Source: Callorhinchus milii
Taxonomy: Eukaryota
Assembly: GCF_018977255.1 (NCBI RefSeq)
Contig: NW_024704748.1
Span: 15,004,001 to 15,068,000, forward strand
Length of the DNA stretch: 64,000 bases
Direction of reading: 5' to 3'
Shown in pieces: positions 1 to 51,615 of this stretch. The position numbers and the translations under genes are program-made. Within the stretch, counting starts at the first letter, position 1; every line of letters starts with the position of its first letter. The notes beneath the pieces are model-generated. The model saw only the letters and a list, made by a program, of their open reading frames with translations, did not search any database and was not told where the DNA came from.

Positions 1-56
1 TTCCTGGAATTCCATCAATTTACAAAGGAGAAAAGGCTTTGGCATATAAAACTTAC

Positions 57-12163: not shown

Positions 12164-12455
12164 CTTGCGAGAATCAGCGAGAGACTGGCTCAGGGCTGAT
12201 TGACAGGCGTCCCGGCCAATCGGGGGGCTGCTCCTGCCCGTCGTCAGGCGCTGAGGGCGGGACTGACTAGTGATTGACAGCCCCTTTTGCCAATCCGCGG
12301 GCGGAGGTGGGCGCACGGGAGGATTGACAGGTGATTGACGTCCCGCTTCGCCAATCAAAAGAGGAAAGCGGATCTGGCCAGCACAATGCAAGAATAAATT
12401 GAACCAATCAGCCTGGTGTTCCCACTGCCAGTCAGTCATCCTGGGCCAATAGGAA
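12157..12455 (-). promoter_or_regulatory. CpG-island promoter/5' UTR of the hnRNP gene with PBX-PREP/MEIS decamers, five CCAAT boxes and a YY1-type motif over the ATG
   Basis: TGATTGACAG at 12197 and 12271, variants at 12321 and 12332; CCAAT at 12216, 12290, 12351, 12404, 12446; AAGATGGCGG on minus at 12157-12166. Confidence 0.75.
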
Positions 12456-16137: not shown

Positions 16138-19100
16138 TCATTTGCAGACCTGCTCCTTCAGGTGAAGCAGAAAATCATAGTATGACATGGTTGACTCATT
16201 GCGGTCCTCAACCATATGCTGAACAAACGTGTTCCTCGTAGTACTGTCATCCCTGCCGAATTAAGAAAGCAACCTTATTAGATCCTGGCTTAATGCAGCT
16301 ATAATCTATTATGGCATTTTAAATCCTGTTGTTACACTCAATCTGAAAGCCCTGATTTCAGAATTTATGACTGTAAGATACTGCCGCCTGCTGCCATGAC
16401 TGTTATTGCACACAATAAGAATCAAGTATGGAATGAAGCGAGGTAATTCAGCCCATCAAGTCATAAATAATCTACAACGAGCACAGCATGAAACTTTTCA
16501 GACAATTATTAACCTCAGATAAAACTAACAATTTAAAACTTCTTTTAAATTCAGTGATATTTCACCTTGTTTGGTATCAAAACTGTTTGGAAATTTCCAT
16601 TTCTCTCACCTCCACAGCAAGTGAGAACTTTATCCTCACCTCACACAAGCTTAGCTGCCAAAAGATAGAATCAGTTATCTATATGTAATTATTTAGTAAA
16701 TCATTGAGGGAGCTTGTTGGCAAACATATACTTAAGATTTTCTGCTGTTTTCTTAATAGGTACATTGAATTTGAGCCAAGGAGGATGTGTGACTGCTCCT
16801 TCTCATTCACTCCTGTCCTGTCTTCCTTTGTCTGATGGATGATCCAGAATTAGATCATATTAAAAGAAAATAGTAATGCTGCTCTTTGGTGTAGCCACGA
16901 GCAAGCAGTCTTGAGTAATAATAAAAAAATCCTTGTATTTGAAATATTGTAGTGCCTTATCAGTCAAAACATGTCAAAGTACTTCAGAGTTTTTTTGTAA
17001 TGTGTATTTGTAGATCAAAGATGCTGTCAATTTGTGCACAGCAAATGTGTCCCAAACAGTCATGATGTGACTGACCAATTTAACTAAAGGATTGACCAGG
17101 ATACTGAAGAAACTCCCTCTCTTTTCAAATAGTGTCACTGTACCTTTAATATCTACCCACAGATGATACCTTGATTTAACATCTCATGTTAAGGACGCCA
17201 CCTCTACTGCTTTCGAATGTGAGCCATAACTTACACTCGAATCAGTTGCAAATGTGGAACCAGCTGAGCCAGGCTGACACTCAAGTACTGTGGAAAGGAA
17301 CCTCTTGCAATCCCTCTCCAATCCACTCTGTAGTGCAAACACCAGTTAGAACTCAAGGATCCCAATCATAGGTAACTTGACCAACCCACGTGAGGATGTG
17401 AAGGTTGGTGGTTATTAATCAGTGGAGAATCAAAAACGTTCCCTTGAAAAGTTGATTAAGGACAATCAGAGAATCGCTCTTGATATGTAAACGTGTTTCC
17501 TCACTGTGAGACCAAGATTTCAGCATAGTGCAGGATATTTCTCCGGCTGTCTGAAAAAAAGTTTAAGTGATACTTTGTAAAAGTTTTCACTCACTTGATG
17601 ACGTAACATGGTGCATGAAAAAGTCTCCCATTTCTCATGGATGTTATTAATGTCTGAACAAGCTTTGAAGTGGGGTTCTGGAATTTAGGCAGTAATGTCT
17701 GAAATACAGCACAACAAAATAATCAATACTGTACAGCACTTAAGTTTTAGTTTGCACTTGTTTCCTTTCACTACGGAGCACAGAGAATTAGACAGACATC
17801 AGCAAACATATTGTATAAGCACAAATATCAATAAGCTGGGGTATGATGGGGTGAGAAAGAATATCCATATAATATGGCCATCTGACTAACGTATGTGAAA
17901 ATGACCTAAGCTGTATGAATCCCAGACATCCAATTCCTCAGTGATTTTGGTATGATGTAACTCTTTATGGAACATAACTTGCTTTTCCCTACTCATGATC
18001 TACCTTTTCAGTGTCCCCCAAGACCATGTACGTACTGCATATTGGAGGGCAGAACAAGTGAACTGCTCCCAGAGCAGTCTGTGCCACTCTTGGCCAATTG
18101 CTGAGCTGCACATCTTATGACCTGTCACCAAACAGACAAACCCTATCTTAATAACATAAAAAACAGCCCATAAATCACACTGAGATGAAAAAAAATGAAG
18201 AATTTAAATGGTTCTATTACTTGTTGGCACTGTGCTTCATTCTGACACTACTGTTGCAGCTGAGTTATGCTGTAACATCAGAAACACCAAGAATTTTATT
18301 CTTTAAAAGCCAATATCCAACTAATCCTTCCACAGCACACAGCTGAAAGTAAGCAATGGTCCAATCCATAGTCCACAGTAAATGTCTTGTGAGCAAATGG
18401 ACAGGTATCAATCTGATAGTCCTGTGTGATCAAAATTTAACACAGTTTTCTGGGTTTTAGAGAGCGAGAATTCTGCAGTGGATACAGATAGCAGATAAAC
18501 CACTTACCAGAGTAGGTGATAGAGAGGTATAACTCGACACTCCTAAAACCTTGTTCAAGAAGCTAGTGCTGCAATGCTTGCCAACCCAAATATACAAAAC
18601 CTAATGACAAGAACACAGAGCAGTCTGGTAACTGAAGCATTCCACCGAAGCAGCATTAGGGCATTTTTCAGAACTTGCCACAAATGGGACACCACTACTC
18701 ACTCACCAGCAATTATGTATGCCTGAATATGTAGCTGCTACCAGAATTTTGCTGGAATCTTGTACACTACACTCTCAGATAGGAGTTTTATCTGCTTTTT
18801 GTACTGTCATGTAATCCTAAATATCGTTAATGTCATATGTTCCATCATTTTAGATTTTAGGGCCAGCCCAATAAGAAAACATTAGCAATTAAAAATGTTA
18901 TGACATAGACACAAACAAAGAGACAGCTAATGGGTCTTTACCAGATTGTGCAATTCAGGTAAAGGGTAACGTTGGAAAAGCAAAAGCGATATTGAATCAG
19001 GCAGTTAGAAGAAAGCAGAAGATTCCAATACAAGTCCAAAAAAAGAGAGGGGAGAAATGTTATCTACAAGTTACCTTGACTCCACCTAGGTATAACTAAC

Positions 19101-22100
19101 AGTATTTTCTCTCAGTCAACATCTCTTAATAAGATCAATACATTAATTTGCAAGAAGAGTATATCTTTCAATGGGTTTCTAGAAACAATTTCTTTGCCAA
19201 GTTTCTTTGAACATTTATTAACACTTACATTGCCACAGTCCATTAGAAAGGCACCTTGAAGAGTAAGGTTATCTACAGAGAGCTGAATCAAGGCTGGTCT
19301 CTTCACTGTCTTATCTTCTGATTCCATGGAGGTCTGTTAGAGTAAAACAAAGAAAACAGGAGGGAAGCTTGTTTACCAATCTCACTATCATGTATCTGGG
19401 ATACCATTGAATGAACACCAATAGAAAAAAAACACTGAAAATCTATCATGCTACACATTAATTCCAGTGCTCACACCATACGTAACCTTGTCACTGGTGA
19501 AGGTATCAATTCGGAACAGGTCAGGGTACACCATCCGCATCACAAAAGTCAATGGCTGTGTCATCAGCTGGTACATAGTGAAAACACGCTCATCGAGGCT
19601 CAGAGCTACGTCTGTCTGAAAGGCCGACTGTAACATAAAATGTTTAATATCAGCAGTTGGTCCCATCAGTATCACACTATTAGGGGTTGTGCCTAAAATA
19701 CACAGTCGCCTATAGAAATGCACAGAAAACTCCGTGAAGCACTTTGAAACGTTTTGCCATGATAAAGTACTGCATCAAATTATTACTATCATCACACCTG
19801 CCCATTTTCTCAACAACATTGCATTGCACAGAGAGATGTAGAGAAAGGAAGTTAACAGAGATTGAAAGGATGCGCATAATACTCAAATTTCCCTCTCCTA
19901 GTTCATGACTTGTGAACTCGCAGAGCCCTACAACACACTGCTTTTGCAACAGTTCAAAGCATGGGGTCTGCGCAAGTGTTCAGACTTAAACATTGTGCAA
20001 TTTTATTTAGTGTTCCTAAAGGCTTAAAATAAATGCTGATTATCTAAACTTATGACCGCATTGCCATAGAGGAAAATCTGGTTGAAATCTGGAAGCAGTG
20101 TAGCAAGTCTGTACAAGTGATACAAGGAGACAGAAACATAGAACTATATCCTGCCGTGACCTTTTACCTGTTTGAGCAGGGCCAGTACATACAGCGGAAG
20201 TTGCTGTAAGCTATAAGGGACGATGAGGCCAAAATGGTGTGGACTGGAAGCTGAATTCTGGTAGGCAGTGAGAGCATCTGTCACAGCCTGCATCAGTTCT
20301 TCTCGGGCGTAAGCAAGGCAGGACCTCACTGCACGATCCACTGCTGTAAGAAACCACAAAACACACAGTCGCTACACTTTACAGTGTATCCTCTGAAGCG
20401 CTTTGAGACATGATAAGCCGCGGTATCAAATATAAGGATTATTATGATTATTATTATCAACCACACAGAGAAAGGAATACTTTGTAAAGAAACATGTAGA
20501 GAAGGACAAAACAGACCCTTTCATACATGTAACCCTTGGAATGTTGGCATCTCGCAAATTTTGAACTTCTTAAGTTTCAACTCCCCCTATTATTCTTAAC
20601 ATCCCTCCTTCTCATCCCTTCACCTAGAACCCCTATATTTAAATCCTCAAGCCTCCCAAAATTTCTAGAAAGCTGTGATTCCCAATCATAGTTATGCAGG
20701 CCGCCATCTTCTGTTGGCTAATTTTTTCACTTTCTAAACTTTTTTAATACTAAGGCAGATATTTTAAAACTGTGAACTCAAGTGAGGCTGAGATAAAGAA
20801 ATGGCCCCTGAAGTCTTGGAATCACTGAGGCATATTCTTGTAACTGTTTTCCGTGATTTTTCTGAAGAGTTGTTAACAAATATCAATTTGATATGGAAAG
20901 CATATGATCTAAGATCCTTCCAAATGGTCTTTGACAAAGCTCCATGTGAAATACTCCTTTACAAACTGATCACACTCGATATCAAAGATTAGACATAAAA
21001 TGTGACTTAGTAACTGTCTGAAAGGAAGGAAGCAGAAGATAGTCCTTAGTGGACCTAGGTCAAAATGGGGAGAGATATTAAATGTTTTACCTCAGGAATC
21101 TGTTCAGACATCCTTCCGGAGCCTTGTATACATCAATGGCCTAGCTTCACAGACTCAGTACAAGGTAGTAAAAGTGAAGGGTGCTATATAAAGGCAAGTT
21201 GTCCTTGTTGTTATAGTTAAATATGTAGGTAACACAAATTTAGGGAGTTAGGGAGTTTTGGTCAATTCTGTGCAAACCCACTGTACCTCCTTAATTCCCT
21301 GATACTAGATGAGAGTTGGAAGTTGCACCTGATCCACCCAACTATGTATCACCACTTTGCTCCACCACTAAGCAATATCACCATCATGCTTCATGTATGT
21401 TTGTGTGAAATTATTATTCGTTTCACCAGTTTGTAGATTATCTTACCTTTTTTAGAAAGAATTCCCACGGTAGCAAGTACATCAACTCCTGCATAAACCT
21501 CACTCGGGGAACTTACGACAGGTAAGCAATATGTGTGGATCCGAACCCGCCGCTCACCTACAAATGCAGCACTGAGTAAGGCCTGTAGTAACTTACAAAG
21601 TCAGCTCACAAACAACAGTGAAAATGGTTTGCAGCTACAGCATGCATGTTGGAGCAGCAGTTCACAGAACAGCTTTGCGGAGCCCTGGGAATAAAGTACC
21701 TGCCCTCTCACTCAGGGAGGGAGGCAACAAAAATAAAATATTACCTAACAAAGGGGAATACATTTACAATGTTAAGCAGGAAATGGGTGGATTATTCAGC
21801 ACCTTGACTGCCGCTAAAAAGCAGTATATCGTGGATGGCTTACCATCATGGGGGCAGGAAAAGCAGACACAGACTGAAGTAAATGTAAGGGAATAAAGCT
21901 AGTTCCAAAAGCATTCTCATTGAGAATGCGGAGAAGCTGGCAGAGTGGGTCGTACCTTGGCTGGAAGTGTAGATTAGAGATAACTGGAACACCACAAATG
22001 TGCTCTCACTCAGAGATCCATCAATCAACATCTGAACGGCAAATTCTGTGTGAGGACAGATAGTGGGCAGGCATAGCAGCTCAGTCGTCTGCAGGAAAGA

Positions 22101-25100
22101 ATTGCCATAAAATGTGTGCAGAAGGAGACCTGAATTTCATGGAGTTAAGACAAAGGTTACAATGAAGCATGCTTTCTTATAAACAGTCATAAGCTTAAGG
22201 ACTTGTCATAAATGTCCACACCCTGCTCCACCATATACTTTGATTATACACAGCTTATTCTGGATCAGTCATCCCACCTGTTTGGGTGCAAAGAAAATCC
22301 CTTCACCTTGTGTGTATCGTATCCTGAGCAGCGCCTCAAAGCCAACAGAACGGGTCAAATAGTACTGGAATTCTTCCTGAAACTTCTCAACCAAGAAATA
22401 GGTGTGTATATGATGGAGTCCTGGATAATAGTACACACAGCCACACGTGTACCTGGAAATACAAGCTGCAGAAACACATTGTAATCAAGAATTAAAGACG
22501 TCCACAGTAAGGAGTCATGGTCTGAAACTCAGAAGGGAATGGCTGAATAGCTAGTTCAGAATTAACTGCTTTACATAGAAAATAATTAACAATGCAGAAC
22601 AGTTTGCTCACAGAGTTGGTAGAGACAGGTGACACGGGCAATTTCAAGAGGGAATTGGATTCATTTTTGATGGCAAAATTGGTTGGAGCAACAGTGTGTG
22701 AGCTGGGAAGAAATGTCATTTGAAAATGACCTGGGGAGTTTCTAGTCCTATGTACTTATACACATTGTATAGTACGGTCACTAAACCGGGTTGTCTAAAC
22801 CAAAAAGTAACAATGTGTTTACAAGCTACATTCTTACAGAGATCTCCTTACAATCAATCTTTTTCAATTATCCCAACCCAACAGAGTTTCACTGCATGAC
22901 ATTGCCCCCAAAAAATACATTTGTGACAACTGTACTAATTTTTTTATCTCAACACCGTAAGTAGCATTTACCTATGGAAGCAAGGTCAGCATACTGCTCG
23001 CTGAGCAAGAACAAGTCCACACAGGTCTGCTGGCCACAGAACTCCAATGCAAGCACCTTGTAGAAGTCGATGGCTGGTCCCAATTGCTCACTTCCCTGAG
23101 AGAAGATAAGAGAAAAAAAAGGCTAGTAAATCTGAGCACTTTGAACTCAGCGCCCTTTTTAATCCTATTCAGGTGAACTTTGTTAATAGAAAAAAACATT
23201 AAATTGTAGGGTTGGAGGGGAGGAGAAAAAATTCTTCCAAGTAATTAATTGTTATTATTATTATTAAGAACAAAAGAATTGCTAGATGAAAGAAGACCAA
23301 GATCCATCCAGTTTGCCTTCCACCATCCTGGTAGTGGCATGCACATGTTATGTCCCAAACTGTATACTGTATCCCAAGATATTATTATTATTGAAACATG
23401 GCTTACATACCAGGTTACTTCCTCCAGGGCTTTCTCGTGGCTGCAGGGAGCCACAGCCTATGTTGGGTAACTGGGTCAAAAACACAGACACACGACCACC
23501 ACTGTAAGCCAGGAGTTTCTGAGCAGCCTGCAATGCAGGCCCCAAAGCGCACTGTGCCTGCTGAGTCTCTCGGAACATATCCGGCAATTCTTCAAGCAGA
23601 GAAACAAGCAGCTATTACAAAGAAAAGTTAGTGCAGGAATCAGAAAAAGGAAGGTAATGGTCAAACATTTAACAACACAGGAGCTATGTTTCATTTATTC
23701 GTAGGCTGTTTCAGAAACTAGTGGAGGCTTACAAGAAACAACATATCAACTTAATGAATACGGTTTTAAACACCAAGGTATGTAGAAAATATTGGTGAAT
23801 TTACAACTCTCGAGGATTAACTTAGATAATTAGTTTTCCAACCCAAAAAAAAATCCATATGAGACTTGGTTAAGCTGGCAAGAAGCACAAGGGTGTGTAA
23901 AATATCAATATCAATTGATATGTTACTATTATTTGTGGCTTAATGTTGAAGACAGGCCAAATATCAATTGAAAGGAACTGCTTAACTCATTTTTTAAAAA
24001 CTCTGGAGCCAGCTGATAGAAAACAATAAGATTGAATCCAATGAAATGCAAGGCAGTGATTAGCTATTATGCTTCATCAAACAGATTCACAAGGAATAAG
24101 TAAGGGCATGCAATTACCTCCCTGCTTTGGTGAAGATTCACTAGCAACTTCTCTTCATTCGGCACAAAGACATCTAGAACAAGAAAGACATACACAACAT
24201 CAATTCTTTTGAAGTACGGAGGCAATTGCCTGTGACTGCTTCCATCTGTGTGGAGGTTCATTGCCATTAAAGATATGGCTGACGTTTGGAAAATGTATAC
24301 CACAATGAAACTTATAATAAACTCAAATGTACGGAAAACATCCAACCTAATTTGTGTGTAAAGTGACTTACAGTGAACCTAAGTGTGATTTCCCATTGTT
24401 TGCCTGTAACTAGCAATAGAATGCTTTTAATATTCATTTAAACAATGACCAGAAAACAAACTAATCTTCGCCTGCAAAGCAACTGCTCAGAGACTCAGTA
24501 GACATATAGTGGTAACTTCAGTCAATGCAATGAAACATGCACAGCCATTTAGTGAGAGGGAAAACACAGTGCAGAATTCAAACCTCCACAGCCATCTGCA
24601 AATACATCAAATGCCAAACAAAGTGCTGAACTGTCCTGCATGCCACGTTAATACTGCAGCTCAGCTAGCAACCATGTTCAGAGCTGGGTTTTCTCAGTGC
24701 CTCTGGAGGAAGCACTGTCAGAACAAACAAGTTGAACATAACTTCAGGGCTGCTAGCTGTTATTTTCTGAGTGGTAAATGTATGAATACAGGAAAGTGTG
24801 GCAGGTTTGTTTTCCATTACTGGCCTGGAACAGAAGTTCCCCACACAGCAGCTGATGTAATATTTTGTGTCTTTGGAATCGACTACACACTGCTATAATC
24901 AGAAGTGCCACATCTTGGAGATTATGGGCTTTGTCTTTCTAATGAGGCACAAATATGCTCAGTGTCAGGTACACTGTTTGTATCCTTCTGTGGTTTGCAG
25001 TAGTGATTGACACCAGTTGTAATGGCTTACTACATCCATGGAATACAGTGAAAATGTATTAATAAAATTATTGATAAATCAAATCAGAATTAACAAAACT

Positions 25101-28100
25101 GTAAGTACAGAGCAATTACTAACTCATAAATGTTTAAATGTTAATTATTTAGGGCGAGCTAAAATATATTCAATCCCTCGTTTGAATTTGACTCATCTTT
25201 CCAATTAATACAGAGACATTATCTTAGTCCTGGAGTCCTGTAGCTCAGTGGTTAGAGCACTCGCTTTGTAAGCGAGAGACCTGAATTCAATTCCAGGCAG
25301 GGCGAAACCTTGGGCAAGTTTCCTTACTCCACACGCCTAATAATAATCCCTCCAAAACCAAAAACAATAATTAAATTGGTCATTTTCAATCTACGACTGT
25401 TTGTGGGACATTGCTGTGCGCAATTGGCTGCCGCGTTCGCCCACAAATATACAGTCAATTCACTTTACAGTGTGTTCTGTGAAGCGCTTTGGGACGTCCT
25501 CCCGACGTGAAAAGCGCTATATCAAATGCAAGGATTATTATTATTATTACAATCAGGTAACCATTTAGAATATAAACGCCACAATACCCTCATCAAGCAA
25601 GTATTTTGTACATATAATTATCACGCACGTATGCTGATATACACATAGATATCCTATACGTATACAGACACATCACATACAAATATATTCCAACATACTC
25701 ATTCAGACTCACATTCACATACATCAAAAGTCCCTATCTACTAACCGTAAGGAATTTAGCAAGTCTTCTGCAAAATGGTAGTTCACACATCTTCCATCAA
25801 ATATAACTCATCATATCCACAACAATTTGAGGTTATTTTGTATCAATAATGACAGACAGATGTTTTTACTGAATACTAATATGCAATCAATGTTTTACAG
25901 TCTATGTAATCTGTTCATTATAAAGATTTTTATGCAAAAATTCTGATTTTAATTATATGCCACAGAATCAAATGTCTGTATTCTAACACTGTCAAAGTGT
26001 CAAATAGCGACTTACCATCAATCTCGGACATGACCATCATACGCGGTCGGGAGAGACTCCTATGCAAATTGTAGAAGTTAACTGTGCTGTCAAAAGTGAT
26101 GAATCCAATGCGAGTTTCTGAATCTTCCAGTAACCTAGGTAACAAAGACAGGAGGCAATGTATGAATGGAATTATCTTTAAATTAGGATCTATAGTCATT
26201 TCTCGTCCATTGCTTGCTTGATCAGTAAGACTGCTCTGGGGAGGAATGATCTTGTCGGAACTCATCAGAAGCAAGTGAACCAAAGTAAAGGAACTTCACT
26301 ATAAAAAGGTTTTTCAACCCATCAAGACTGCCACTTCCACAAACGCCTGCATGAATGATTCTATTATGGATTCACACTCCTTCCCAATGATTTATTCTCC
26401 TGAGTCAATGTTCTGCATAAATTAGTGTCACTCAGTGAGGTTCTGCCAAGTCTTACGCTATGTTTTGCTGGAGGGCCATTTGCTGTAATACTCTAACATG
26501 CTGCAGCTCGAAGATCTGCGGTCAAAATTTCACCAACACATTGAAATTTCCAACAGTCCCTCATGGCAGCCAGATACGTCCACCATTAGAAGATGAGAAA
26601 ACAGTACACCCTCAAAGCCCACGATAGCTTTTAAATTCAAACGTTACAGCCTTAGGCATTAACAAATGTTTTGTTCTAAATTGAAAACAGCAGCATTTAC
26701 ATCTCCCTGATAATTTCTGGGCACATGAGCTCTGGTACAATGACAACTTGTAGTCCTTGCCAACAGATGAAACAGAAGCTCTGAAAGTAAACAAATGCAA
26801 GTATTTTTGCACTCTGATATCTCATTAATCAAAAAGAATCAACTTTATTTCCTTCAAGTTTTTGGGCTATTCCCAGAAATACCTTCAGACCAAAAACCAT
26901 AGTGAGATAGAGCTGCGTTAAGAGCTTTGCCTATAGCCACTGAATGCCTCACCTATCTATGTTGTCCAGCAGGATTTGGCAAACAATCTGCAGGTAGCCA
27001 GTTTCCACTGCTCTGTAACTGACGTCAAACATAAACAAGTATGTTGCAGGTTGAGGGGGACGAGCCTGAGGAGCCATAAAGAGATAATAAAGTGCAATCA
27101 GCAAACTTCATCCATCGGCCTGCTAATCAGTTACACGGTACATGTATGTTACTTCACAGTAATTGACTTGTATTGGGTACACCTCTACTGTGCCTTACCG
27201 TACAGTGTTGGTTGCTGACTCACTTCAACAGAGATTCTGTCAGTATCAACCCACTGTGCCACAATGTGCAACTTACACAAAGACACTGAGCAGAGGCTGG
27301 GCACTATGTCACAGCAACAGAAAATCTCTCCACATTTGTGGAGAGTCATTTGTGCCCTCATTTGATCTGCGATGTATGATGTGGTATTAAGTAAAACTTA
27401 GAGAGGGAAGAAAAGGTAAAATAACTTTCTAGTTTTAACAAAAGAGAGATACTTTTATCTGACCCAAGTGGAAGGGAAATGTTCAAGTACAATGGAAGAG
27501 GTAGCTATAACTGGTTCTGTACAGTGGGATGGTAGCTGTTCCCATTACAGCTGACCTGTAAACATTTTTGGGGGGTCAGCCAGGTGTTTGACATATGCAG
27601 AACCCATCACTATGCTTAAGAGTATCCAAACCAAGCTGAGATTTCCATGCGTCCTTCATACACATGGGAAATTCCAGAGATAGATTGTTGGAATGGAATG
27701 CGCACTCTCTCCCTGGAGGGATGCATCCTACTAACGTAATTCCAGAAGGTATTACGCCTTCCGATCTGTACAGAGTGATTATCAGTGGGTGGGGACATCC
27801 CCCCGACGTGAAAGACGCTCTATAATTTTAATTTTGTTGTTGTTGTTGTTTGTTGTTGTTGTATTTGGCACAGGTTGGCATGAGCCAAGGCTTGGGGACC
27901 TCAGGATGTGCATTGGGGTAACTGCTGGAGTCTAACAAACTACAACTACATAGCTTACAATGAAGGAAACTGCACAATTGGACACAACTGGACATGGTAC
28001 ATACAGATGGTCTGTACAGAGTGATGGTGAATGTACAAGTCGTACATGTGAATCAGATGGAAGAGGAAGTTCCTGCAACAGGTGATCTGTAAAGTGGAGG

Positions 28101-29978
28101 TTGTACCTGATGGTTGGATGTCGCAACAAACTCCAGAACAGCATGCTGCAGTTCAGGTCGCATGAGTGGGTTACAATAGCTGCCTGTAATGGGGTCATAG
28201 AGAAAATTCCCAGGAACTATAAAACAGAAACAAAATACAAGTAGTGAAACCTGCTGTTGATTAGGATTAAACCATTGATTACAATTGTACCTTGTAATAA
28301 TTCCAGATGTCTATTAGATACCTGAGGCCTTCATTACAATAGTGCCTTGTAATTATTCCAGGTATCTATTACAGTCTTTATAAATTACCTGACAACACTA
28401 CCTTGTAATTATTCACAGGTATTCATTATTCTCTATTTCATGGATATAAACATACAGGGGAATCTTGTTTTAATGCAGTCTTCCGGATTATAATACCTTA
28501 GAGGCCATGTTATAAGCAAAGCACAAAGTGACTTTGATATCATCATGTCTCTTCCTGCAAGTTGCATGCAGATGTGCTATATGCAGAAAACATTATTAAT
28601 ATCACTTCCTACATGTGTAGAATGCAGAAAGTGATGTGAGTGACAACTTGATGACCCAGAATTCAGTCTCATTTTAGCCTAGGAAACTGGTTTGTGAGCT
28701 CCAGAAGCTGAGTGCTATCTTGTGGTCACCAGCACTATTAGCAAAGCAGCAATATACAAGGTGACCAGGTCCCCCTTTATAAGGCATCACGGGTTCTGAG
28801 GGAGGTTAAATCCAACATTATTGCTGCTTTACCATCATTGAGTGAAAAACAAGTGTTGCATTTCCAGTGTCGCTGGTCTATGAAGATCACAAAAGGGTTT
28901 ATATAAGTCTGACACATTGAACAGCATGGAGGAGCTCCAGGAATCACTGGGAGAGGTTCCTGCGGAAGAAATTAAAGGCTGGGTCAGTAAAAACATTCAT
29001 TATTAAATTGTAAACTGATAAAGGCAAAAGATGATTTTTTTTCGCTAATCCGTAATGTATTTCGGGCTGTCTGCTCCTAAAGCAGCCGTCTTACACTGAA
29101 ATTCTTGAATGGGTGGAAAATCAGGCCAAGAGGAAGCATCACTTGTTTCAGGAGTGCCTGAGTCTGAGGAATATTCATCAGGGTGCATCGAAATATACTG
29201 TAGGAGGAAAAAAACAAAGAAAGCAGAAATGTTCGGGTCATTGATGTACTAATTTGAACTGTTACACAATGATTAGTTCATACTGTACATATTAAAAGAA
29301 GTTGCTGCTACCCAAAGGCTTATTGGTTAAATGCAATGTCTGATGTGATGTGGTCCTGAATAATCCAGACCAGGAAGGTACCAGATGTGATTTACAGTCT
29401 GTGCTGAGGTGATCAATCATGGAAAGGCAATGTCCCAGAGCTAGGCAGGGCAAACGCTCACATTCCATACTTTTTGTGCAGCTCACTCACTGCCAGCACT
29501 AAAAGCAAACCACATAGTGTGGTATACATGTCATATTTTATATCCTCTCGGTTCTTTGCCTGGTTAATATTTATCATATTGTTTAAACAGAATTACTCTG
29601 TGATGATGACTAGTAGGTATTTGTGGATCCTGTCCCAAGAGGCCAAGAATAGCTCATTCAAAAAGACTTTGCTGTGAGTAAATGTCCCAAATAAATAGTA
29701 TATGTACTATATAGAAAAAAATTAACACCTCCTAAACAATGTACACATCAAATACATACATTACCTTTTACAGTGTACCTAATGTTACTGACGTGTAAGA
29801 GAATATTGAGTTCTTACTCTGAGCTGCAGTTCAGTTTCCTGAGGGAGGGACTCAGGTTTGGCTCAGGGGTTGAAGCTGGTTCGACTGGGAGAACACATCT
29901 CTCTTGTAAAAGGTTCACTGGCCGCACATTGGCCTGCTGCAGATTTAAGTTTGGTGTCATCTCCTTCAGCTGATCCAT
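16138..29978 (-). CDS. Protein transport protein SEC24A/B-like (COPII cargo adaptor), divergent, predicted 769 aa
   Basis: 18 GT-AG exons totalling 2310 nt with no stop or frameshift: 29978-29818, 29197-29095, 28959-28833 (Zn finger CSMC...WKCNTC), 28086-27959, 27065-26953 (RPPQPATYLFMFDVS), 26134-26016 (RIGFITFDSTV), 24173-24118, 23611-23411 (ALGPALQAA...GGRVSVF), 23095-22972, 22465-22307 (GFEALLRIR), 22129-21956, 21557-21447 (GERRVRIHT), 20343-20168, 19627-19487, 19333-19229, 18600-18508, 17698-17595, 16252-16138 (MVEDRNESTMSYYDFLLHL...CK*). The start codon and exon 28086-27959 are the least certain parts. Confidence 0.9.
16925..17285 (-). mobile_element. Old Deu-domain SINE relic
   Basis: Degenerate reverse complement of the 62135-62435 element (CCAGGATACTGAAGAAACTCCCTCTCTTTTCAAATAGTG...TTTAACATCTCATGTTAAGGAC). 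Confidence 0.6.
20880..21150 (+). mobile_element. Degenerate CR1-type LINE reverse-transcriptase fragment
   Basis: Remnants FQMVFDKAP (cf. FQKAFDKVP), RKQKIVLSG (cf. RKQRVVxNG), LPQESV (cf. VPQGSV), YING (cf. YIND), broken by stops and frameshifts. Confidence 0.65.
25231..25548 (+). mobile_element. Full-length young tRNA-derived SINE (reference copy)
   Basis: GGAGTCCTGTAGCTCAGTGGTTAGAGCACTCGC head with Pol III boxes; LINE-type 3' tail AAGCGCTATATCAAATGCAAGG(ATT)n. Confidence 0.92.
28285..28425. repeat. Degenerate tandem repeat, about 55-bp period, three units
   Basis: CCTTGTAAT(A/T)ATTC recurs at about 28290, 28345 and 28400. Confidence 0.6.
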
Positions 29979-32900: not shown

Positions 32901-33529
32901 TGCAATGCCTTCACCAAGCAGAAAAAAACAAATGCTCAGTGGTTGTCACGAGCTTCTGCTAATTGGTTCAACGATAGCAATACAATTGCTAGGAGTACAT
33001 TTGTTGTCAAACATAGGATTTTCTCTATTGTATGGTAAAAGGAGGTTTAATTGGAAGCAGATCTAGGTTTGCCCACAAATGGAATGAAATTAGCTGAGAA
33101 ACTTTTATCTGAAGGCTGATATGGAAGAAAAATGCAGTTCTTGGATCAAATACAATGAAAATTCATAATTTTTCCAGCTATTAAACAGCAGAATGATTAT
33201 GCAATTATCATATGCACCTTTTTTGACAGCTGGTGCACTCTGCATTAGTTTTTGAGCTACTCTCTAAAAATCAATTCAATCTGAGCAATTGTGTGTATGT
33301 TTCTATCAGTTAATGTGATCGTGTGTCTCTCTACCAATTTTTGTGTATCTGTTTGTCAGTATATTTTCTCTCACTCTCTGAAAGTGTTTGTGTGTGTCCC
33401 TCTCTGTCTGTCTGTTACTGTAAGCGCTCTGAGACGCTACACTGCATGGAGGGCGCTATATACGTGCCAGCTGTTGTGTATTTCTCTCTTCCCCCTGGTT
33501 CTGTCTGTTTATTTCTCTTCCCTCTGTGT

Positions 33530-34075
33530 ACTTATACACTGTATTTCTCGTGTGTGTATATATTTACTGTATGTGTGTATATACTGTGTGTATATATACT
33601 GTTTATGTGTGTATATACTGTGTATATATATGTATACTGTATGTGTGTGTATATATTGTATGTGTGAGTATGCTGTATGTATATGTATGTGTGTATATAC
33701 TGTATGTGGGTAGTTACTNNNNNNNNNNNNNNNNNNNNNNNNNNNNNNNNNNNNNNNNNNNNNNNNNNNNNNNNNNNNNNNNNNNNNNNNNNNNNNNNNN
33801 NNNNNNNNNNNNNNNNNNNNNNNNNNNNNNNNNNNNNNNNNNNNNNNNNNNNNNNNNNNNNNNNNNNNNNNNNNNNNNNNNNNNNNNNNNNNNNNNNNNN
33901 NNNNNNNNNNNNNNNNNNNNNNNNNNNNNNNNNNNNNNNNNNNNNNNNNNNNNNNNNNNNNNNNNNNNNNNNNNNNNNNNNNNNNNNNNNNNNNNNNNNN
34001 NNNNNNNNNNNNGTACGTGTATATGTGGTTGTGTACGTGTATATGTGTGTGTATATATGTCTACACTGTGTGTGT
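33530..34075. repeat. (TG/TA)n microsatellite region containing assembly gap 33719-34012
   Basis: Visible dinucleotide-rich sequence on both sides of an N run. Confidence 0.9.
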
Positions 34076-34099: not shown

Positions 34100-34279
34100 T
34101 CCCTGTCTCTGTCACTTGACCCCGACCCGGAAGTGATGCTGTGCTGAGGCCGGAAACATTCCCGTTGGTTCCTGCGCTGCCGGGAGTCGGTGTCGGAGAG
34201 AGACCGCTCGGAGCCGCGAGACAGAGAGAGAGAGACGGAGAGAGAGAGAGAGAGAGAAAAAAAAGAGAAAGAGGATCAG
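34100..34279 (+). promoter_or_regulatory. SAR1A CpG promoter and probable non-coding exon 1; candidate bidirectional promoter with the SEC24-like gene
   Basis: ETS/GABP-type CCGGAAGTG at 34127-34135 and CCGGAAAC at about 34150; CpG-rich; donor CAG|GTCAGA after 34279. Confidence 0.6.
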
Positions 34280-34699
34280 GTCAGAGCACAGCACAGCCCC
34301 CCCCCCCCCCCCACCCACACCACCGGCTGTCAGACACCCCGAGTGCGCTCAGCTGGTGTGAGGGGTGTGAGGGGTGTGAGGGGGGGGGTCAGGCCCCACT
34401 GAGCGACACGTAACCGAGAAAGAGCCATGACGGGGGGGGGGGAGGGGAGAGGAAAGGAGGACACTGGAGAGGGAGGGAATGATTGAGCGTGTGGGGGGAG
34501 GGATGGAGGGAGGGAGGGGGTGAAGAGGAGAGACAGGAAGTGAAATGGGGGGGAGGGGGGGGAGAAAGAGTAGAGGGGGAAAAAAAGTAAGAGGTTGGGA
34601 GGGAGAAAGAGGAGGAGGAGGAGGAGGTTAGGAAGCAGAGGGGAAGTTGGTGGTTTGGGAGGAACACCAGATTTCTTCACCGAAGAGATCTGCGAAAAT

Positions 34700-35065: not shown

Positions 35066-35347
35066 TGACTTGTACTGCCTTAAAGCTCCAGAGACAGAAT
35101 GAATTAGGATTGTTAAACTGGATCTAAATAGATACTTGGGGAAAAATAGCTAAAATGAAAAGGGGAGGTCATAGGATTAAAAGACATGTTGCTCATTTGT
35201 AGTGCAGAGCATTGGCTCTATTTAGGTTCCTTAAGGTTAGCTTCAGATATGTTGCAGTATCTGTAGCTTTTTAAGTAAATTCCATTGCTGTGTAACCAAG
35301 TAGTGATCCAGATTGTGTTTACATTTGTAGGTGTGTCCGATTCAGAA

Positions 35348-38300
35348 ATGGAGACCTTTTTCGATTGGATTTTTGGTAATATTACCAGTATGCTGCAATT
35401 CCTAGGTAAATGGGTTAGTCTTTTATTTCCTCTCCCTTTCTCCTTTAAACAAGGAATTTCCAGACTTCTAACAGCTTTTCTGATATCTATCCTACTTGTT
35501 TGCCTGATCGCAATTTAGATGTGATTACCCAAAAATGTGCTCTTAGTAGTAGGTTTATTGCACCATTTACCAGCCCACTGACTCAGTTTGTCCATCTCTG
35601 ATTTGTACTTTATTTTATTTTCATCTTTATTCAGCTCAGTAAATTACCTTTGGGATCCCCAAGACTATTTGTGCATTACCTCATGAATTATTGAGAAGAT
35701 CTTATAGATGCTCAGTGCCTCCTTTCTCCTTTTGTGCTGGTTTAACCCCCAGCTGAGAAAGCAGTCAGGCAATCCCGTTCTATAAAATACAACTCAAAAT
35801 ACTGCAGGTGCTGGAAATCTGAAAACAAAAACAGAAGTCGCTGGGAACACTCATCAGGTCAGGCAGCATCTATGGAAAAATGAAAGTGAGTCAACGTTTC
35901 GGGTCCACGACCCTTCATAAGAACTTCGTCAGTCCAGTTCTGTAACTGTATGGGGGACATGAGATCAGCCCAGGTTGTCTCACTTGCTTCTTTTCCCCAT
36001 TGTTGTCAAAGTCTCCTTCCCTTTTAGCCCAAAGAAGATCAAAATGTTCCTAAATTGAGAGTCGCTATAATAAACATTTCCAGTCCAAATCGGTATCCGT
36101 GCACTGGACTTACTACGGGTTTTTGTGTACAAAGCATTAGTAATGTTTGGAAAATTTGCATGCTGGTCAAAGCAAGAAATATTTTCTTTCAAAACTACAC
36201 TAATTTTCTTTGTCTAGGTTTATGTAAGAAGTCAGGAAAGTTGGTTTTCTTGGGTTTGGATAATGCTGGCAAGACAACCCTACTGCACATGTTGAAAGAT
36301 GACAGACTGGGACAGCATGTTCCTACATTACACCCGAGTAAGTATTTCCATCAATTTAGCATACTATTCCTCAGTGAACTGACTTTTCACAAAAGGCTGA
36401 GAATTCATCTTTTGGTTCATCATTTTAACTGGGGTAGTGATTTATAATGTTGACTGGCCATATTGTTCCTTAGATGGTGTCCAGTAGATAAATTGTTTAG
36501 TCTGAATATCAATAGACATCAGTCACAGAGCTCTTATAAGAAGTGCTACCTGCATGAATAGTCATTAAAGAATAGATCCAAACTTGAGTAATCACGCAAG
36601 CTGACAGGGTAGTAAACTAATTGAGGGATCTAGATGACCGTAATCCATTCACATTTCTCACTATTTATGCAATCTGATCTGCTAAATTAGATTACAGTCT
36701 TGTAATAATTCCCAGGAGTAATTTGATTTATTTAGTGGATGCACCATGGGTCTATTTTACCTAGAGTATACTGAGTTGTTGATTCCAAGTGATTGACAAC
36801 TAACTCCTATATTTCTGCAGTTTTCATCCCACTTGCAGCCACCAATTTTTGCCTTCCAGAATTAAGCAAACAAATCCCTTTATTTCCTTACAAAAGTATG
36901 TTCTAAGCATTGCATTCTTCAGTAAGAACAGACACAACGAGAAAAACTTGTGTACTTATGTACTGTCAATCAATGGTAGCTTTTTCTGGCCTTTTTCATG
37001 ATTTTTGTTCTTACTGTCTCCTAAGAGTTGTTTTGCTGCTAATTCTGCCCATAACTACAAACCCTGACGTGTGTAGATGGTTGTTTTATTTGTGGCTGTT
37101 GGAGCTTTGCAGGTTTTGGGAGCTCCATGGATCTGATTCATTCTCCTGATTAGGTCCTGTTTCTTTACACAGCATCGGAGGAACTGACCATTGCAGGAAT
37201 GACGTTTACCACGTTTGATCTTGGAGGTCATGCACAAGGTAAAATTCTCACAAGAGATGTTTTGTTACCTTTTAAAGCAGGATAAGCTGAATTTATATCA
37301 ACAGTCTTCATTCAGTACAGTATTTGAATTAAATTAGTTAAAGCTATGCTCCCTGTTTATACGTTGTTTTCTCTTACCGAGTCTCGCCATCAATAGCAGG
37401 TAGTGATGAAACCAATTACCTAGGATGCACAAAGTATCTGTAGACTGTCTCAACAGTGGATCCGAGAGAACTGGGTAGTGTTCAGTCAAGTGCTTCGGGA
37501 CACTAACCTGTGTGAAGTGCGCTATATAAATGCCAATTGTTGTTATTTGGGCTCTGGTTTTAAGAACTTTCATTTTGTTCATCTCCATTGGCAGAGATAA
37601 ATCAGTTAACCAGCCCAGTATTTGGCTTATAAGGACTTGATATGGTGACTGTAGCATGGCAGGCATTGTAGATTCACATCAGTAGCAGAGTAGTGGGCTC
37701 TTGGGGAACTGCCTTGTAAAGGGAAGAGGCACTCACAGTTGTAGCATTGTGACTCCGGATTTTCAAGATACACTCTATTTTCTTGATTAACAACAACCAT
37801 ATGAGTGCAGGACAACAACATGAGAAAATGAGGCAAGAGGAACAGAGGAGGAAAGAATCTTTGAATGTAAAATTAAACTTTGTCATTAATAATTATATAG
37901 GCTTTCAACTGTTAAATCTTTTCACTCTCATTCAAATAAATAAAAAAATGGACTATTCTCTGGAAAGGAGTTCTATTTAAACTCTCCTGCTTATTTGCAG
38001 CCCGACGAGTTTGGAAAAATTATCTCCCTGCCATTAATGGAATTGTTTTCTTGGTTGACTGCGCAGACCATTCACGGCTTGCTGAATCTAAGGTTGAGCT
38101 TGATGTAAGTCAAACAACATTAAGGTGAAGTTTTTGGGAGGTGTGTGGGAAAGGATTCTTGAATTCTAGAAATTGGGTTTGTATGATGTAACTCATTAAA
38201 GCAATGGTTGAACAGGTTAACTTTTCTGAATTACAAAATTATTTAAACGTATTCCCATAATTTAGCTGTAATAAATGCATGTGATGTTTCTACTGATTTG

Positions 38301-39924
38301 TTGGGGGGATTTTGTGTTGAAACTGCCTCAATTGTACCTTCACTTAATGCAAACATTGTGGTCAAATAACAGCTGGTGATTCAGCACTACTTGACCAGCA
38401 AACCTTATTTCAGTCGTAGGCTGTATGCAATGTAGTCAAATGTGCAACATAATCTAAAACTTTCCCTTCCCTTCCAGGCATTGATGACAGACGAAACAAT
38501 ATGTAATGTTCCAATTCTTATCCTTGGAAATAAAATTGATCGACCAGAAGCCATCAGTGAGGAAAAGCTAAGGGAAATCTTCGGTCTGTATGGACAGTCC
38601 ACAGGAAAGGTAAAATATGGTTTGGGTTTCCAGAGAGAACCTTTTTTCTTTGAGACCATGACCATTTGATTAGATGCCCAAAATGCTTGGGAAGCTCTAC
38701 TCATGTTACTCTGGGCATGATGCAGAAAAATAATTGCAGTCCTCAAAGGATTAATTAAACGTGTGGTTGGGTCACTTTCCCTGGAGTGGTTTCATTTTGC
38801 CTTACAAGTTGCAGTGATTTACAGTGACAGCTGACCATGTGCTGAGCTAGCACAGACAGCTGCTTGCCCTGTTGTTTGTGCCAGCGTTAGTGATAAGGGA
38901 ATTTTCCTTCCAACTGTTTTATAAATCGGACCTACAACCCTGTTAAGGTTATCTTTTTCTTTTTATATGAAATGCTGTTTCTTGTACACCTGGAGATTTA
39001 CAAGTCCATGCTGAGTGCCTTTTGCTTTTTAAATTGACCCCTGGTGAATACAATGAACAGGTTAAAATTATCAAAACTAAATAAGAGCAGGACAGTTTTG
39101 TATTTCAACCAATTCCTCTTTCAGTTATGTTTGCAGCCAAAATACAAAGGTATCTTAAGTTAGGAAAAAGGAAAGCATTAGGTCTTCATGCACCATTCCC
39201 TTAGTTGAGGGGGCATCAATTGATATACTCCTGTGTGCTCCGAGATGCTGTCTGTCGTGAACGGTGCTATATAAGTGCTAGTTGTTATTGCCTCTGACTG
39301 GTAGAACTTATTTTCAGCCACTCTCAAAAATGTGCATATGAGCAATCAGCTGACTCTTCCTGTGATTTTTTTCCTCTCTCTGTGGGTATCTTACCTCTCC
39401 TGTTTAATACCAGCAAAATCATAAGCTAACTGCTTGTGCTTTAATGAGCTCAAACCAGTGTCGTGTTCCATAGCATGTGTGCTGGTACACTTTGTACTGC
39501 CAAAAACTATTGCGCATTTGCTGGTACTAGTCATGACTCTCATGGACCATTAAATCTTGGTTCTAAGCAAGGAGTTGCTTTTTAATAATCAAGTCTACTT
39601 TGTCAACTGTCTTTATTATACACTCGGAATCTGACTCGGAATATATGAAATTAATGCAAGGAATCCTGCTTGCAAATAACATTTTAGACCTTGTTATGTT
39701 ATTATGGCATATATCAAGAAATATTCATCAAGGAAATGTATTTTGTTTTCACAAATCTTCTCCCCCTTAAAAAAACTGTATTAATTTCACACATTGATCT
39801 GTTCTAGGGTAATGTACCCCTCAAGGAGCTGAACACTCGGCCATTGGAGGTGTTTATGTGCAGTGTGCTAAAGCGTCAAGGTTATGGAGAAGGATTTCGC
39901 TGGCTTGCACAGTACATCGACTGA
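35348..39924 (+). CDS. SAR1A: Small COPII GTPase SAR1A, 198 aa
   Basis: Exons 35348-35405, 36218-36337 (GLDNAGKTT), 37173-37238 (DLGGH), 38001-38104, 38478-38609 (NKID), 39808-39924 (WLAQYID*), total 597 nt. KKSGK, DHSRL and ESKVEL plus adjacency to TYSND1 favour SAR1A over SAR1B. Confidence 0.95.
35795..35925 (-). mobile_element. Short repeat of probable Penelope-like origin carrying a degenerate hammerhead motif
   Basis: Minus strand: CTTATGA-A-GGGTC-GTG-GACCC-GAAA-CGTTGAC followed by AGATGCTGCCTGACCTGATGAGT...CCAGC. Confidence 0.55.
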
Positions 39925-42515
39925 ACTTAAAATTTGACTACTGTGGACTGAACTAGTTTGCCATTGTCATGTTTTTTTTCTTTTATTTAAAAAAAAACAG
40001 GATACACAACTGTCGACTCAACACATCATAATGCCAACCAGGAGATAATCCCCATTTTCTGAGTTTTTAAGTATAATTTGAGTTAAATGTTTGTACGATA
40101 ATTCAAATTGTAATGTTACACATGATCCTTTGTTTCATACTAGCTGAAAAATTTACACTTAAATGTATATTGTGCAACAGTCTCAGGATGTGTGCATTGT
40201 TCTTTTTTTGCTCTGCCCCTCTTCTCCCTTCCTCCCCTCTCACCACAGGGTTTTTTTGGTGCTCTTAAATTGTTTGGGAATGTTTATACTCAAAGGCCTT
40301 GTTGCAAACAACGTGCATTAATGAAACAGAACAGTTGTTAACTGGCCACTGATCTAAGTATATGCTGAAAGCATTTTAACCCAACTTGAAAATGGGAGGT
40401 TACAATTGGCCTTAGTTCCTACTCCCTCAACAGTGGGATCCTACTCCAGTTAGGAGGTTAAATACTGCCTGATTTTTTTCCTTCCACACCTCCCTCCTCC
40501 CCCCACTCAATCCCTCACTGGAAAGTGCAGACGTATGGGCATCGTTAACACAAACAGGCTGAGTTGTGATGCTATACAGAGTCGAGCAGCAGCCTGCTGA
40601 CATTTAGTAATGTAAAATAGATCACATGGTTTACCTGCTAGCACTATGTAACTGTATCCCAATAGGAGTCGGCACTTCAGGAGCAACAAAGGGGAGAAAA
40701 TTGACAAAAACATTTTTTTAACCCAAATAGGTTATCATTGTATTAAGAATTTTGTTGACTTTTCACATCTGTTTTTCTTCTTTGCAAGTTAATGTTTGCA
40801 ATTGAAGCCATTCTCAACATATTCTGGGTTGAGATACAGTTCACTACAAAATATGTACCTTGCACCTGTCTGGGTTGGTGAAAATGCTGTCTGATTTATA
40901 AACACAAGTAATTAGTTCAATATCCAGTTATCTTGCTCTCGATTCTCCAGTGATTATAGTTATTGTGTCAATGTGTGGTGCAGGTTAATTGTTACACCAA
41001 AGGTGGATCTTCGAAGACCTTTCAGTGTTACTGCAAATATTGCATCCCTCATTCAAACCTGCCAGTCTAGTTTTGTATGACTAATTAACTGTAAAGTTTA
41101 AAAATTCACTAAAACAAATTTTAAAAACAAATTATTGTGTCATAACTAAATGATGGCCTGGGTTTTTTTAAACCTTAGTAATTTTGAGAGTGAAAAAAAT
41201 TTAGACAACCAATACCCAGGTGGATTGAGTATAATGAAGTAGTTGTTTAAACTTCATGAGTGATTGTAAAGAACAAAGAAAATCTCCAGTTTGTAAACAC
41301 AGGTGGATGGCACAATCAAGAGCTATTCAGTGAATAACAAGTTTGACCCAGAATTTTATTTACTTCTCAGCGACTGAAATATTTGTAAACATTTCTATTG
41401 CACAATTTCTTGCACACTTTTAATTGTAATGAAAGTGTTTCTGATTCATACGGTTGGTTGCTTTTAGCTTTCTTCGTTGTGTGGTTTGATTGTAAAATTA
41501 CCATAGATAATGCAATGTGTTCTACAGATTGATAACAAGCAGCAGATATTCCCCTTACTCCTATTAATTATAGCTAATACAATAGAACAAATGTATTTGG
41601 GAATTCTTATTTTTTCTGTTCACTTCCAAGATTTGCTTATCACAGATTCACAAAAGTCGAATTGAGTAGCATTGTTATTGAATGGGAAAAACGTTTACAG
41701 TAGTCAATCGAAAAGAATGAGTGGTGGTCAGTCAACACTAAGTACTATAGTTATTATTTTGTTTGTGCATCTGAAGGCTTTAGTCACTTGTCAGAATGGT
41801 GGTGTTCTTTCAAACTGCTGAAAGAATGGAGGCATTCTATGTAATAGTTTTGTTTTTCTTTGCTGTGCTTCTACATGGGCCAGGCAGATTTCTCTAGAAA
41901 TAGCACTGCATCCCATTCCCAAGCTCAAATTGTTTTTTTTTGCTCGGTTTGCTCAACCCTAGTGCTCAGCCCCATGGTGGCAAGCCCTTACAGTGATGCA
42001 TTACTTCTTGAAATGGGAGTACAGCAGAAGCCAATTAATGGGAATGTATTTTCAAAAAGTCCATCTTGTACATTTTCAAAATGGTTTGCTTGATAAGGGT
42101 GAGCAGATTACTGGAATGTTTTGCTTATCACAGTTTGATTAGGTGGGGGTACCAATTAAGGAGTTTATATGCCAACTGCATTGTCAGCGGCATCCTATTC
42201 TCCAAAGCATGAATGCAAACTTTTTTTTTATCTCTTCCCCCCCCTCCCTCCCAAGACTTTAGGGCTTCTCACATAAGTTGGTACTGTACCTGCAGTATTA
42301 CTCCCATTATTGCAGTTCTACATGTTTGTAGTCATTATTCTCCACAGTTTTAAAGAGGGTATTGGTGACAAGTTTAGCCTCTCGCCAAATTATTGCCTTC
42401 ACCAATTAATTCTTGTAAAAGCTAGTTCATACCCTCGCTGTCAGTTCATTCTCCATCTAGGAGAAAAATAACCTGCAACATGTATAAATGTATTATAAAT
42501 CATTGCTTTATTTGA

Positions 42516-51576: not shown

Positions 51577-51615
<39 letters not shown>

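Follow-up and report, generated by a model that had tools for sequence, protein, structure and literature searches.

A fifth SEC24 gene of cartilaginous fishes, coelacanth, and bichirs with altered cargo-binding sites on a conserved fold

The window analysed here, a stretch of 64,000 nucleotides (nt) from the genome of Callorhinchus milii (assembly GCF_018977255.1, contig NW_024704748.1, positions 15,004,001 to 15,068,000), carries a SEC24A/B-family gene that most likely represents a third copy of this type derived from the early vertebrate genome doublings and that stands beside a SAR1 gene. The encoded protein holds the Sec24 fold, whereas parts of three mapped cargo-binding sites, B, C, and D, have been lost. 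At least one of the four B-site arginines is missing in each of the 16 species compared (13 cartilaginous fishes, coelacanth, and two bichirs), and the missing set differs from lineage to lineage. Taken together, the sequence comparisons suggest that the gene probably encodes a structurally conserved, SEC23-paired inner-coat subunit of low selectivity, in which cargo recognition has been relaxed.

Cargo-binding sites across the clade

According to the available excerpts of the papers cited throughout, the B-site includes R430, R435, R750, R752, L498, and V748 (PMC12463132), or R750, R752, Y437, and Y496, with R541 and K813 assigned to the C-site (10.1101/2022.01.31.478454). Between them, the two sources agree with the initial annotation of this locus on the B-site role of R430/R435/R750/R752 and also place Y437/Y496 there. 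R750, R752, and Y496 serve C-terminal hydrophobic signals, and L773 is the switch between SEC24A/B and SEC24C/D (PMC5464768); V748, L808, I818, and Y437 line the pocket in a docking model (PMC10142963). In yeast, S491, F576, and R578 form the D-site (10.1101/253294), and R232, R250, R252, and R257 a modelled basic patch of the Zn finger (PMC13640594). Human residue numbers were obtained by alignment to chain 2nup_B (index + 340, an inferred offset that places the arginines, tyrosines, and leucines cited in the papers on matching letters) and yeast numbers by alignment to chain 1m2v_B, with yeast R230/R342/R559/R561/R578/L582 corresponding to human R430/R541/R750/R752/R769/L773. For the roles of yeast R230/R235 and F385/P387, secondary accounts or general background serve as the basis.

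Across the sampled eukaryotic sequences, the arginines of the B-site almost never vary. The motif could be read in 136 of the 147 other Sec24 cluster representatives, with Arg at position 430 in 136/136 and Arg or Lys at position 435 in 134/136. Likewise, R430, R435, R750, R752, and L773 are invariant in 66 of 66 other sequences, compared with two to six states per position among 13 rows of the clade formed by the window gene and its orthologs. The window protein reads C/Q/R/R/Y/H at R430/R435/R750/R752/Y437/Y496 and therefore lacks the B-site arginine cluster of SEC24A/B; with E/Q at C-site R541/K813 and C/F/Q at D-site S491/F576/R578, it departs from SEC24A/B at these sites as well.

Among the orthologs, position 430 is Arg in 11 of the 12 sharks and rays, Cys in C. 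milii, and Gln in skate, coelacanth, and bichirs; position 435 is Gln or Glu in all 13 cartilaginous fishes, Arg in coelacanth, and His in bichirs; and position 496 is Tyr in 13 of the 16 species, His in C. milii, and Ser in bichirs. R430C and Y496H are seen in C. milii only, and position 435 takes four states, so that the substitutions of C. milii, which the initial annotation had proposed to trace in orthologs, are mostly not shared. R541 is Arg in eight species, Gln in seven, and Glu in C. milii, and at R752, 11 species have Arg and the three bony fishes Ser. L773 shows six states (Leu in C. milii; Met, Thr, Lys, Gln, or Val elsewhere). Y437 is kept in 16/16 species, and R750 is Arg or Lys in the 14/14 with sequence. 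The loss of B-site arginines is graded, with one missing in shark, two in C. milii and skate, and three in bichir. Because each lineage lacks a different set of arginines, the pattern points to relaxed constraint rather than to one new pocket. With regard to CpG decay as a possible cause of the missing arginines, both CGN and AGR codons occur at these sites in the sister genes, and 15 of the 43 replacement states are C, H, Q, or W.

Single, early fixed changes comprise those of the D-site plus a few lining residues (V429P, M749L, I818V): the D-site Ser is Cys in 16/16 species, R769Q is found in 15/15 with sequence, and V429P and I818V are found in 16/16. Such changes could mean that substitutions on the stem built a new surface, held ever since and endowed with a new cargo specificity; the D-site and the pocket lining would be more plausible places for it than R430/R435. 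In fourteen columns, a residue conserved in the family gave way to one that nearly all clade members share (including yeast S491C, R769Q, V429P, and I818V), the stem branch is long (0.5 in the 24-row tree described below), R435Q/E occurs in 13/13 cartilaginous fishes, and a basic N-terminal motif is present in 14 of 18 clade rows and in 0 of 194 vertebrate SEC24A/B rows. We nevertheless consider this explanation unlikely: the B-site is variable rather than fixed, its R430C and Y496H being private to C. milii, there is no candidate cargo, and fixed stem changes are also expected from an early loss of function. The initial annotation had taken the remodelled B-site as a sign of new cargo specificity; the alteration itself extends to all 16 species, but the step to a new specificity is unsupported.

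Gene structure and the exons around the Zn finger

The gene and its exons that bear on the cargo-binding sites are as follows.

16138..29978, minus strand: SEC24A/B-family gene, 18 coding exons, 763 amino acids; protein P0002 rebuilt letter for letter from the window
29818..29978, minus strand: first annotated coding exon, with an acceptor-like AG 12 nt upstream of the ATG
29095..29197, minus strand: exon preceding the Zn finger, 103 nt, from the gene rebuild
28833..28959, minus strand: Zn-finger exon, 127 nt, with V429P, R430C, R432S, R435Q, R449H, and R457S; C431, C434, C452, C455, and Y437 kept
28107..28216, minus strand: exon after the Zn finger, 110 nt, intact, phase 1 in and phase 0 out, ending in ATSNHQ; Y496H codon at 28112-28110
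27959..28106, minus strand: intron stretch read as coding in the initial annotation; no Sec24 match
26953..27065, minus strand: exon opening the trunk domain, 113 nt; L498A is its first codon
26016..26134, minus strand: trunk exon with C-site R541E at 26118-26116 (C-site residues as excerpted from 10.1101/2022.01.31.478454)
24118..24173, minus strand: 56-nt exon with the F-x-P strand, kept, matching yeast F385/P387 in the alignment
22972..23095, minus strand: exon in which the D-site Ser (yeast S491) is Cys (23038-23036), as in 16/16 species
22307..22465, minus strand: exon with V748L and M749L, R750 and R752 retained, from the alignment and gene rebuild
21956..22129, minus strand: beta-sandwich exon with F766S, R769Q (D-site, yeast R578), L808I, and K813Q (C-site); L773 kept
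21447..21557, minus strand: exon with I818V (pocket lining; Val in 16/16 species)

All introns are GT-AG, the frame is free of stops and frameshifts, and the protein, named 'Sec24B-like' (Callorhinchus milii) at NCBI, contains all five Sec23/24 Pfam domains above cut-off (Zn finger, trunk, beta-sandwich, helical, and gelsolin). The 127-, 110-, and 113-nt exons, the three of the 18 that were compared to the base, are identical in size in the window gene and in SEC24A and SEC24B of the same genome.

The Zn-finger exon reads APPCCSMCQTYINPFV...WKCNTC and matches SEC24B and SEC24A chains with expectation (E) values of 6e-11 to 8e-11. Exon reading and alignment bear out what the initial annotation had observed here, namely R430C (TGC, 28926-28924), R435Q (CAG, 28911-28909), and the retention of the four Zn cysteines, Y437, R750 (22325-22323), and R752 (22319-22317). 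The Zn ligands are kept in 16/16 species. R430C creates a fifth Cys beside the first Zn ligand (CCxxC, 28926-28921), a feature of C. milii alone among the 16 species.

The same annotation described the next exon as largely replaced, ending in PVVSNCAVSFI, and the Y496 motif as lost. This was a wrong-frame reading: exactly this peptide results from entering the acceptor at 28216 in phase 0 and reading past the real donor (28107) as far as a GT within the intron (27958). Since the Zn-finger exon ends in phase 1 and the stretch 28107-28216, flanked by AG/GT borders, aligns in phase 1 to SEC24B (E 3e-5) and SEC24A (E 1e-4) over 35/36 residues without gaps, the exon has not been replaced. The motif exists as ATSNHQ, in which Y496 is substituted by His (CAT) and not deleted. 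The 65-residue peptide of 27959-28153 matched no Sec24 chain, its sole match at E ≤ 10 being unrelated (E 0.94). A DNA search with 27940-28100 for copies of the intronic stretch as a repeat returned only itself, in a search that skips common words and is no proof either way. A second model of the gene, P0001, is without the six residues that end the 110-nt exon; orthologs and both sister genes have them, and the omission is taken as a probable model error.

Spliced contigs came from four runs, X1-X4 (two studies), presumed to be RNA. In these, the beta-sandwich exon 21956-22129 is spliced at both ends, with introns skipped at CT..AC borders (21555/21954 in 4/4 runs and 22127/22305 in 3/4), and one X2 contig links four listed pieces from 26257 to 22305. 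The joints listed do not include those of the B-site exons, and 290 further joints lie beyond them. Contig depth in X3 is 78-225 on exons from 22465 downward and about 10 on upstream exons, and one X3 contig extends 76 nt into the intron above 22465. This step may point to a shorter 3' transcript or to an effect of tissue, although the depth of contigs is a poor measure.

Conserved fold and short N-terminus of the gene models

The AlphaFold2 model, built on a 79-row alignment, has a predicted local distance difference test score (pLDDT) of 91.6 and template modelling (TM) scores of 0.94 to SEC24B (3eh1) and 0.92 to SEC24A, in keeping with the view of the initial annotation that the fold is kept. 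As the alignment consists mostly of canonical Sec24, the predicted structure demonstrates compatibility with the fold, not function. For measures of constraint, a column counted as family-invariant if 36 or more of the 38 canonical rows had the same residue (n = 219), and parsimony changes were counted on a fixed species tree for 14 of the 16 species. Within the clade, invariant columns underwent 1.22 changes and variable ones 2.63 (n = 219 and 241, p = 5e-20). Because invariant columns change less than variable ones, the substitution pattern indicates that the fold is under purifying selection. The F-x-P strand, which we take to be involved in Sec23 binding, is kept in 13/13 cartilaginous fishes. 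The strand is missing in bichir proteins P0143 and P0275, and the coelacanth has Val for Phe. If the gene models are right, SEC23 binding may have been lost in bichirs.

In the gene models, the N-terminal region differs markedly from that of SEC24A/B. The core is preceded by a median of 88 residues in clade models versus 433 in vertebrate SEC24A/B; the PPP motif occurs in 0/18 clade rows versus 142/194 vertebrate SEC24A/B rows (rows include isoforms and are not independent). The basic N-terminal motif mentioned above ends in VHP or IHP; it is resembled by a motif in 11 of the 129 other rows and by one that yeast Sec24 has at its start. Ortholog proteins are about 60-70 residues longer than the window gene model, and given this and the acceptor-like AG upstream of the ATG, additional 5' exons may lie upstream of 29978. 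Neither pattern matching nor tblastn (best E approximately 1-10) found a 5' exon with the basic motif in the window, which contains an N stretch at 33719-34012. A QLSKKVHM stretch (33206-33250, minus strand) resembles the ortholog motif; without an in-frame start and with a chance-level E of 9.5, it is either a remnant or a coincidence.

The short N-terminus and absent PPP motif are among the features that would fit a regulator or decoy, which would bind SEC23 or partners linked to Sec16/Sar1 and dampen or reshape coat assembly, or act outside vesicle budding. The alteration of the B-, C-, and D-sites together with the Zn-finger basic patch (yeast R232, R250, and R257, as excerpted from PMC13640594) and the missing F-x-P strand of bichirs point the same way. 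However, R750 stays Arg or Lys in 14/14 species and Y437 in 16/16, and the predicted N-termini of the gene models may be incomplete; such a role thus appears quite improbable.

Origin of the gene

The window gene lies in genome G000 of C. milii, whose contigs C1, C7, and C13 are referred to below. A search of this genome with the Zn-finger family returned seven matches: two of SEC24A/B type (C1, C13), two of SEC24C/D type (C1, C7), the window gene, and two of SEC23 type, the SEC24C/D and SEC23 labels resting on motifs that we take to be characteristic. There are thus five SEC24 Zn-finger exons, two on C1, one on C13, and two on C7. Orthologs of the window gene were found in 12 sharks and rays at 62-70% identity versus 53-54% for SEC24B rows, and a representative search with name look-up added coelacanth, reedfish, and bichir orthologs. 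In the top-hit lists for 351 further proteins, the rows of coelacanth and bichir alone scored close to the clade. The matches listed suggest that the clade is absent from teleosts and tetrapods.

In a tree built from 24 selected rows over 756 columns and rooted on invertebrates, the window-gene clade is recovered at 100/100 within the vertebrate group and follows the species tree. SEC24A and SEC24B are joined at 98/98, with an open fork involving the cyclostomes, and the C13 and C1 genes of the genome occupy the places of SEC24A (100/99) and SEC24B (99/98). The window gene falls outside both clades and is therefore the ortholog of neither in this tree, which fits a duplication after the split from invertebrates and before the radiation of jawed vertebrates. 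A quick tree of 52 rows, which excludes four clade rows whose models are partial or odd, places the bichirs inside the clade. The path from the vertebrate node to the window gene is 0.82 changes per column, compared with 0.20 for SEC24A and 0.23 for SEC24B of the same genome, corresponding to a rate about four times that of SEC24A/B.

Fast evolution, the lack of teleost or tetrapod members among the matches listed, and the heavy divergence of bichirs (44% to the window protein) might be taken as near-neutral decay of a dying duplicate toward a pseudogene. This explanation is largely refuted and retains only a very small probability, since open reading frames are found in 16 species, cartilaginous as well as bony fishes, the Zn ligands are kept in 16/16, constraint at invariant columns is strong, splice sites are intact, and spliced contigs exist.

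The surroundings of the gene bear on its origin, with two elements upstream of it:

34100..34420, strand not assigned: CpG-rich stretch with two CCGGAA cores (34127, 34150), between SEC24 and SAR1
35345..39925 (approximate), plus strand: SAR1 gene, head-to-head with the SEC24 gene

SAR1 is also head-to-head with SEC24A of the genome on C13, and the CpG-rich stretch is a candidate promoter shared by the two window genes. Beyond SAR1 lies a trypsin-like peptidase gene, followed by one of the RTP801 family, and the opposite side holds an hnRNP A/B/D-family gene; we take SAR1, the peptidase, and the RTP801-family gene to correspond to SAR1A, TYSND1, and DDIT4 of human 10q22. Paralogs of the three of four neighbours compared (the trypsin-like gene being left out) are located on C13 (SAR1), on C1 and C13 (RTP801 family), and on C13 and C1 (hnRNP), those of the last two families being the closest ones. 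Their presence on the contigs of the sister genes agrees with an origin of the window gene in the vertebrate genome doublings.

Strength of the site signal and its interpretation

In the window protein, 53 of the 219 family-invariant columns are changed. Across the clade, B-site columns underwent 2.5 parsimony changes versus 1.31 in other invariant columns (n = 8 and 207, p = 0.032). When B-, C-, and D-sites are combined, 6/11 columns of the window protein are changed versus 46/207 (p = 0.024), or versus 17/80 polar columns (p = 0.027), and at a looser cut 8/13 versus 67/288 (p = 0.005). These p values are uncorrected, the C- and D-sites were added after the changes had been seen, and the polar background only approximates solvent exposure. 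The site signal is real though modest. The idea that basic residues in general were lost selectively was rejected, the test being not significant in the window protein, sharks, rays, and bichirs (p = 0.10-0.28) and reaching p = 0.01, uncorrected, in the coelacanth only.

The explanation that we favour is that the fifth SEC24 would still pair with SEC23 and sit in the inner COPII coat (COPII, coat protein complex II), with the surface that faces the cargo under relaxed selection, given that the work on acidic signals (DxE, LxxLE), SEC22, and cornichon is done by SEC24A and SEC24B. A set of changes would have been fixed early (D-site S to C, R769Q, V429P, M749L, and I818V), followed by a piecemeal, lineage-wise loss of B- and C-site residues. 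In C. milii, the pocket would retain its terminal-carboxylate core, consisting of R750, R752, Y437, and a hydrophobic pocket with the conservative changes V748L, L808I, and I818V. With the lost arginines and Y496, weaker binding of acidic and hydrophobic signals is expected: in the absence of R430, R435, Y496, and L498, DxE/LxxLE binding would be weak or nil, and that of C-terminal hydrophobic signals at most weakened. Losses of R541 and R769 would remove the capture of SEC22 and cornichon. The outcome would be a coat subunit of low selectivity that is probably tissue-restricted.

Several observations weigh against this explanation. The B-site excess is weak, falling to 2.5 versus 1.64 changes against a polar or charged background (n = 80, p = 0.115) and to 4/8 versus 46/207 changed columns in the window protein alone (p = 0.087); general acceleration could explain much of the B-site change. 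As a class, the invariant basic residues of the window protein show no excess of loss over others (9/25, p = 0.15). L773, which separates DxE binders from non-binders in mammals in the excerpts of PMC5464768, is kept in C. milii. Sharks keep R430, R750, R752, Y437, Y496, and R541, and their proteins may, judging by these residues, bind much as SEC24A does. The fixed D-site changes, read from the alignment, are as compatible with a new function as with a loss. Finally, approximately unbiased (AU) tests do not reject a grouping of the clade with SEC24A (p = 0.09) or with SEC24B (p = 0.095).

A more far-reaching scenario, which we put forward as speculative and rather doubtful, is that the fifth SEC24 of early jawed vertebrates abandoned the capture of acidic signals, SEC22, and cornichon and exchanged its long proline-rich tail for a short basic motif resembling that of the yeast Sec24 N-terminus. 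As an inner-coat subunit, blind to cargo or newly tuned, it would serve a particular secretory task, in one tissue or for one product, that was kept in sharks, coelacanth, and bichirs and lost in teleosts and tetrapods. The initial annotation contained neither the separate ancient lineage of the gene nor the changes that the C- and D-sites underwent in parallel, nor the much shorter N-terminus of the clade models.

Relation to known SEC24 proteins

The closest relatives are SEC24A and SEC24B (the Sec24I group in the excerpts of PMC4419792; human structures 3egd, 2nup, and 3eh1), with which the window protein shares five domains, TM scores of 0.92-0.94, 51-54% identity, exon sizes at the three exons compared, the Zn ligands, Y437, R750, R752, and L773; the head-to-head place beside SAR1 is shared with SEC24A. 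Nevertheless, the gene is separate from both, evolves about four times faster, has a short N-terminus in ortholog models, and is changed at R430, R435, Y496, L498, and V748 (B-site), R541 and K813 (C-site), and the equivalents of S491 and R578 (D-site). SEC24C and SEC24D (Sec24II) do not bind DxE/LxxLE (PMC5464768) and are without the D-site residues (10.1101/253294), according to excerpts of these papers; the window gene would resemble them in this one respect. However, the window protein matches them at E 3e-103 versus 2e-273 and shows 27-29% structural identity to them, and it is thus not a member of that group. Moreover, SEC24C/SEC24D lose acidic signals via L773D and keep Arg 430 and Lys 435 in this genome, whereas the window gene keeps L773 and loses the arginines. 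Other ancient duplicates retained only in cartilaginous fishes, coelacanth, and bichirs, for example extra T1R receptors (PMC10781636), have a distribution that is just as patchy and likewise concerns jawed vertebrates that evolve slowly, but the window gene encodes a core secretory coat subunit.

Mammalian SEC24 genes are counted as four in the available excerpts of the COPII literature. We found no account of a fifth SEC24 in the accessible portions of the open literature, including the paper on COPII evolution PMC4419792; subscription papers and supplements, where shark ohnolog tables could list the gene, were outside this scope. The gene is already in databases under the inconsistent names 'Sec24A-like' and 'Sec24B-like', and these labels should merge into one gene name. 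A naturally retained SEC24 in which three mapped cargo sites have been partly lost and the fold preserved offers a reagent for separating cargo capture from coat assembly and for gauging selective export, and the graded series from shark through C. milii and skate to bichir supplies natural B-site variants. If nothing beyond relaxed selection on a redundant copy proves true, the gene adds to the list of ancient duplicates retained in these fishes.

Neighbouring genes and minor observations

The hnRNP A/B/D-family gene (window 1-12400, minus strand) comprises CBFNT and RRM exons and has three close paralogs in the genome (one on C13, two on C1), 80-84% on the exon searched. Mammals have three hnRNP A/B/D-family genes, and this hnRNP gene may be a fourth member of the family. 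The genome has three RTP801 (DDIT4-family) genes, at window 51084-51737 (minus strand), C1:72.38 Mb, and C13:5.51 Mb; mammals have two, and the C13 copy may be a further retained ancient duplicate. The N-terminal exon of SAR1 (35345-35407, plus strand) and the exon that follows look slightly unusual, e.g., in having Cys versus Tyr in the C13 copy before KKSGK. Copies of a tRNA-derived short interspersed nuclear element (25230-25550 and others) show very high contig depth in all four runs.

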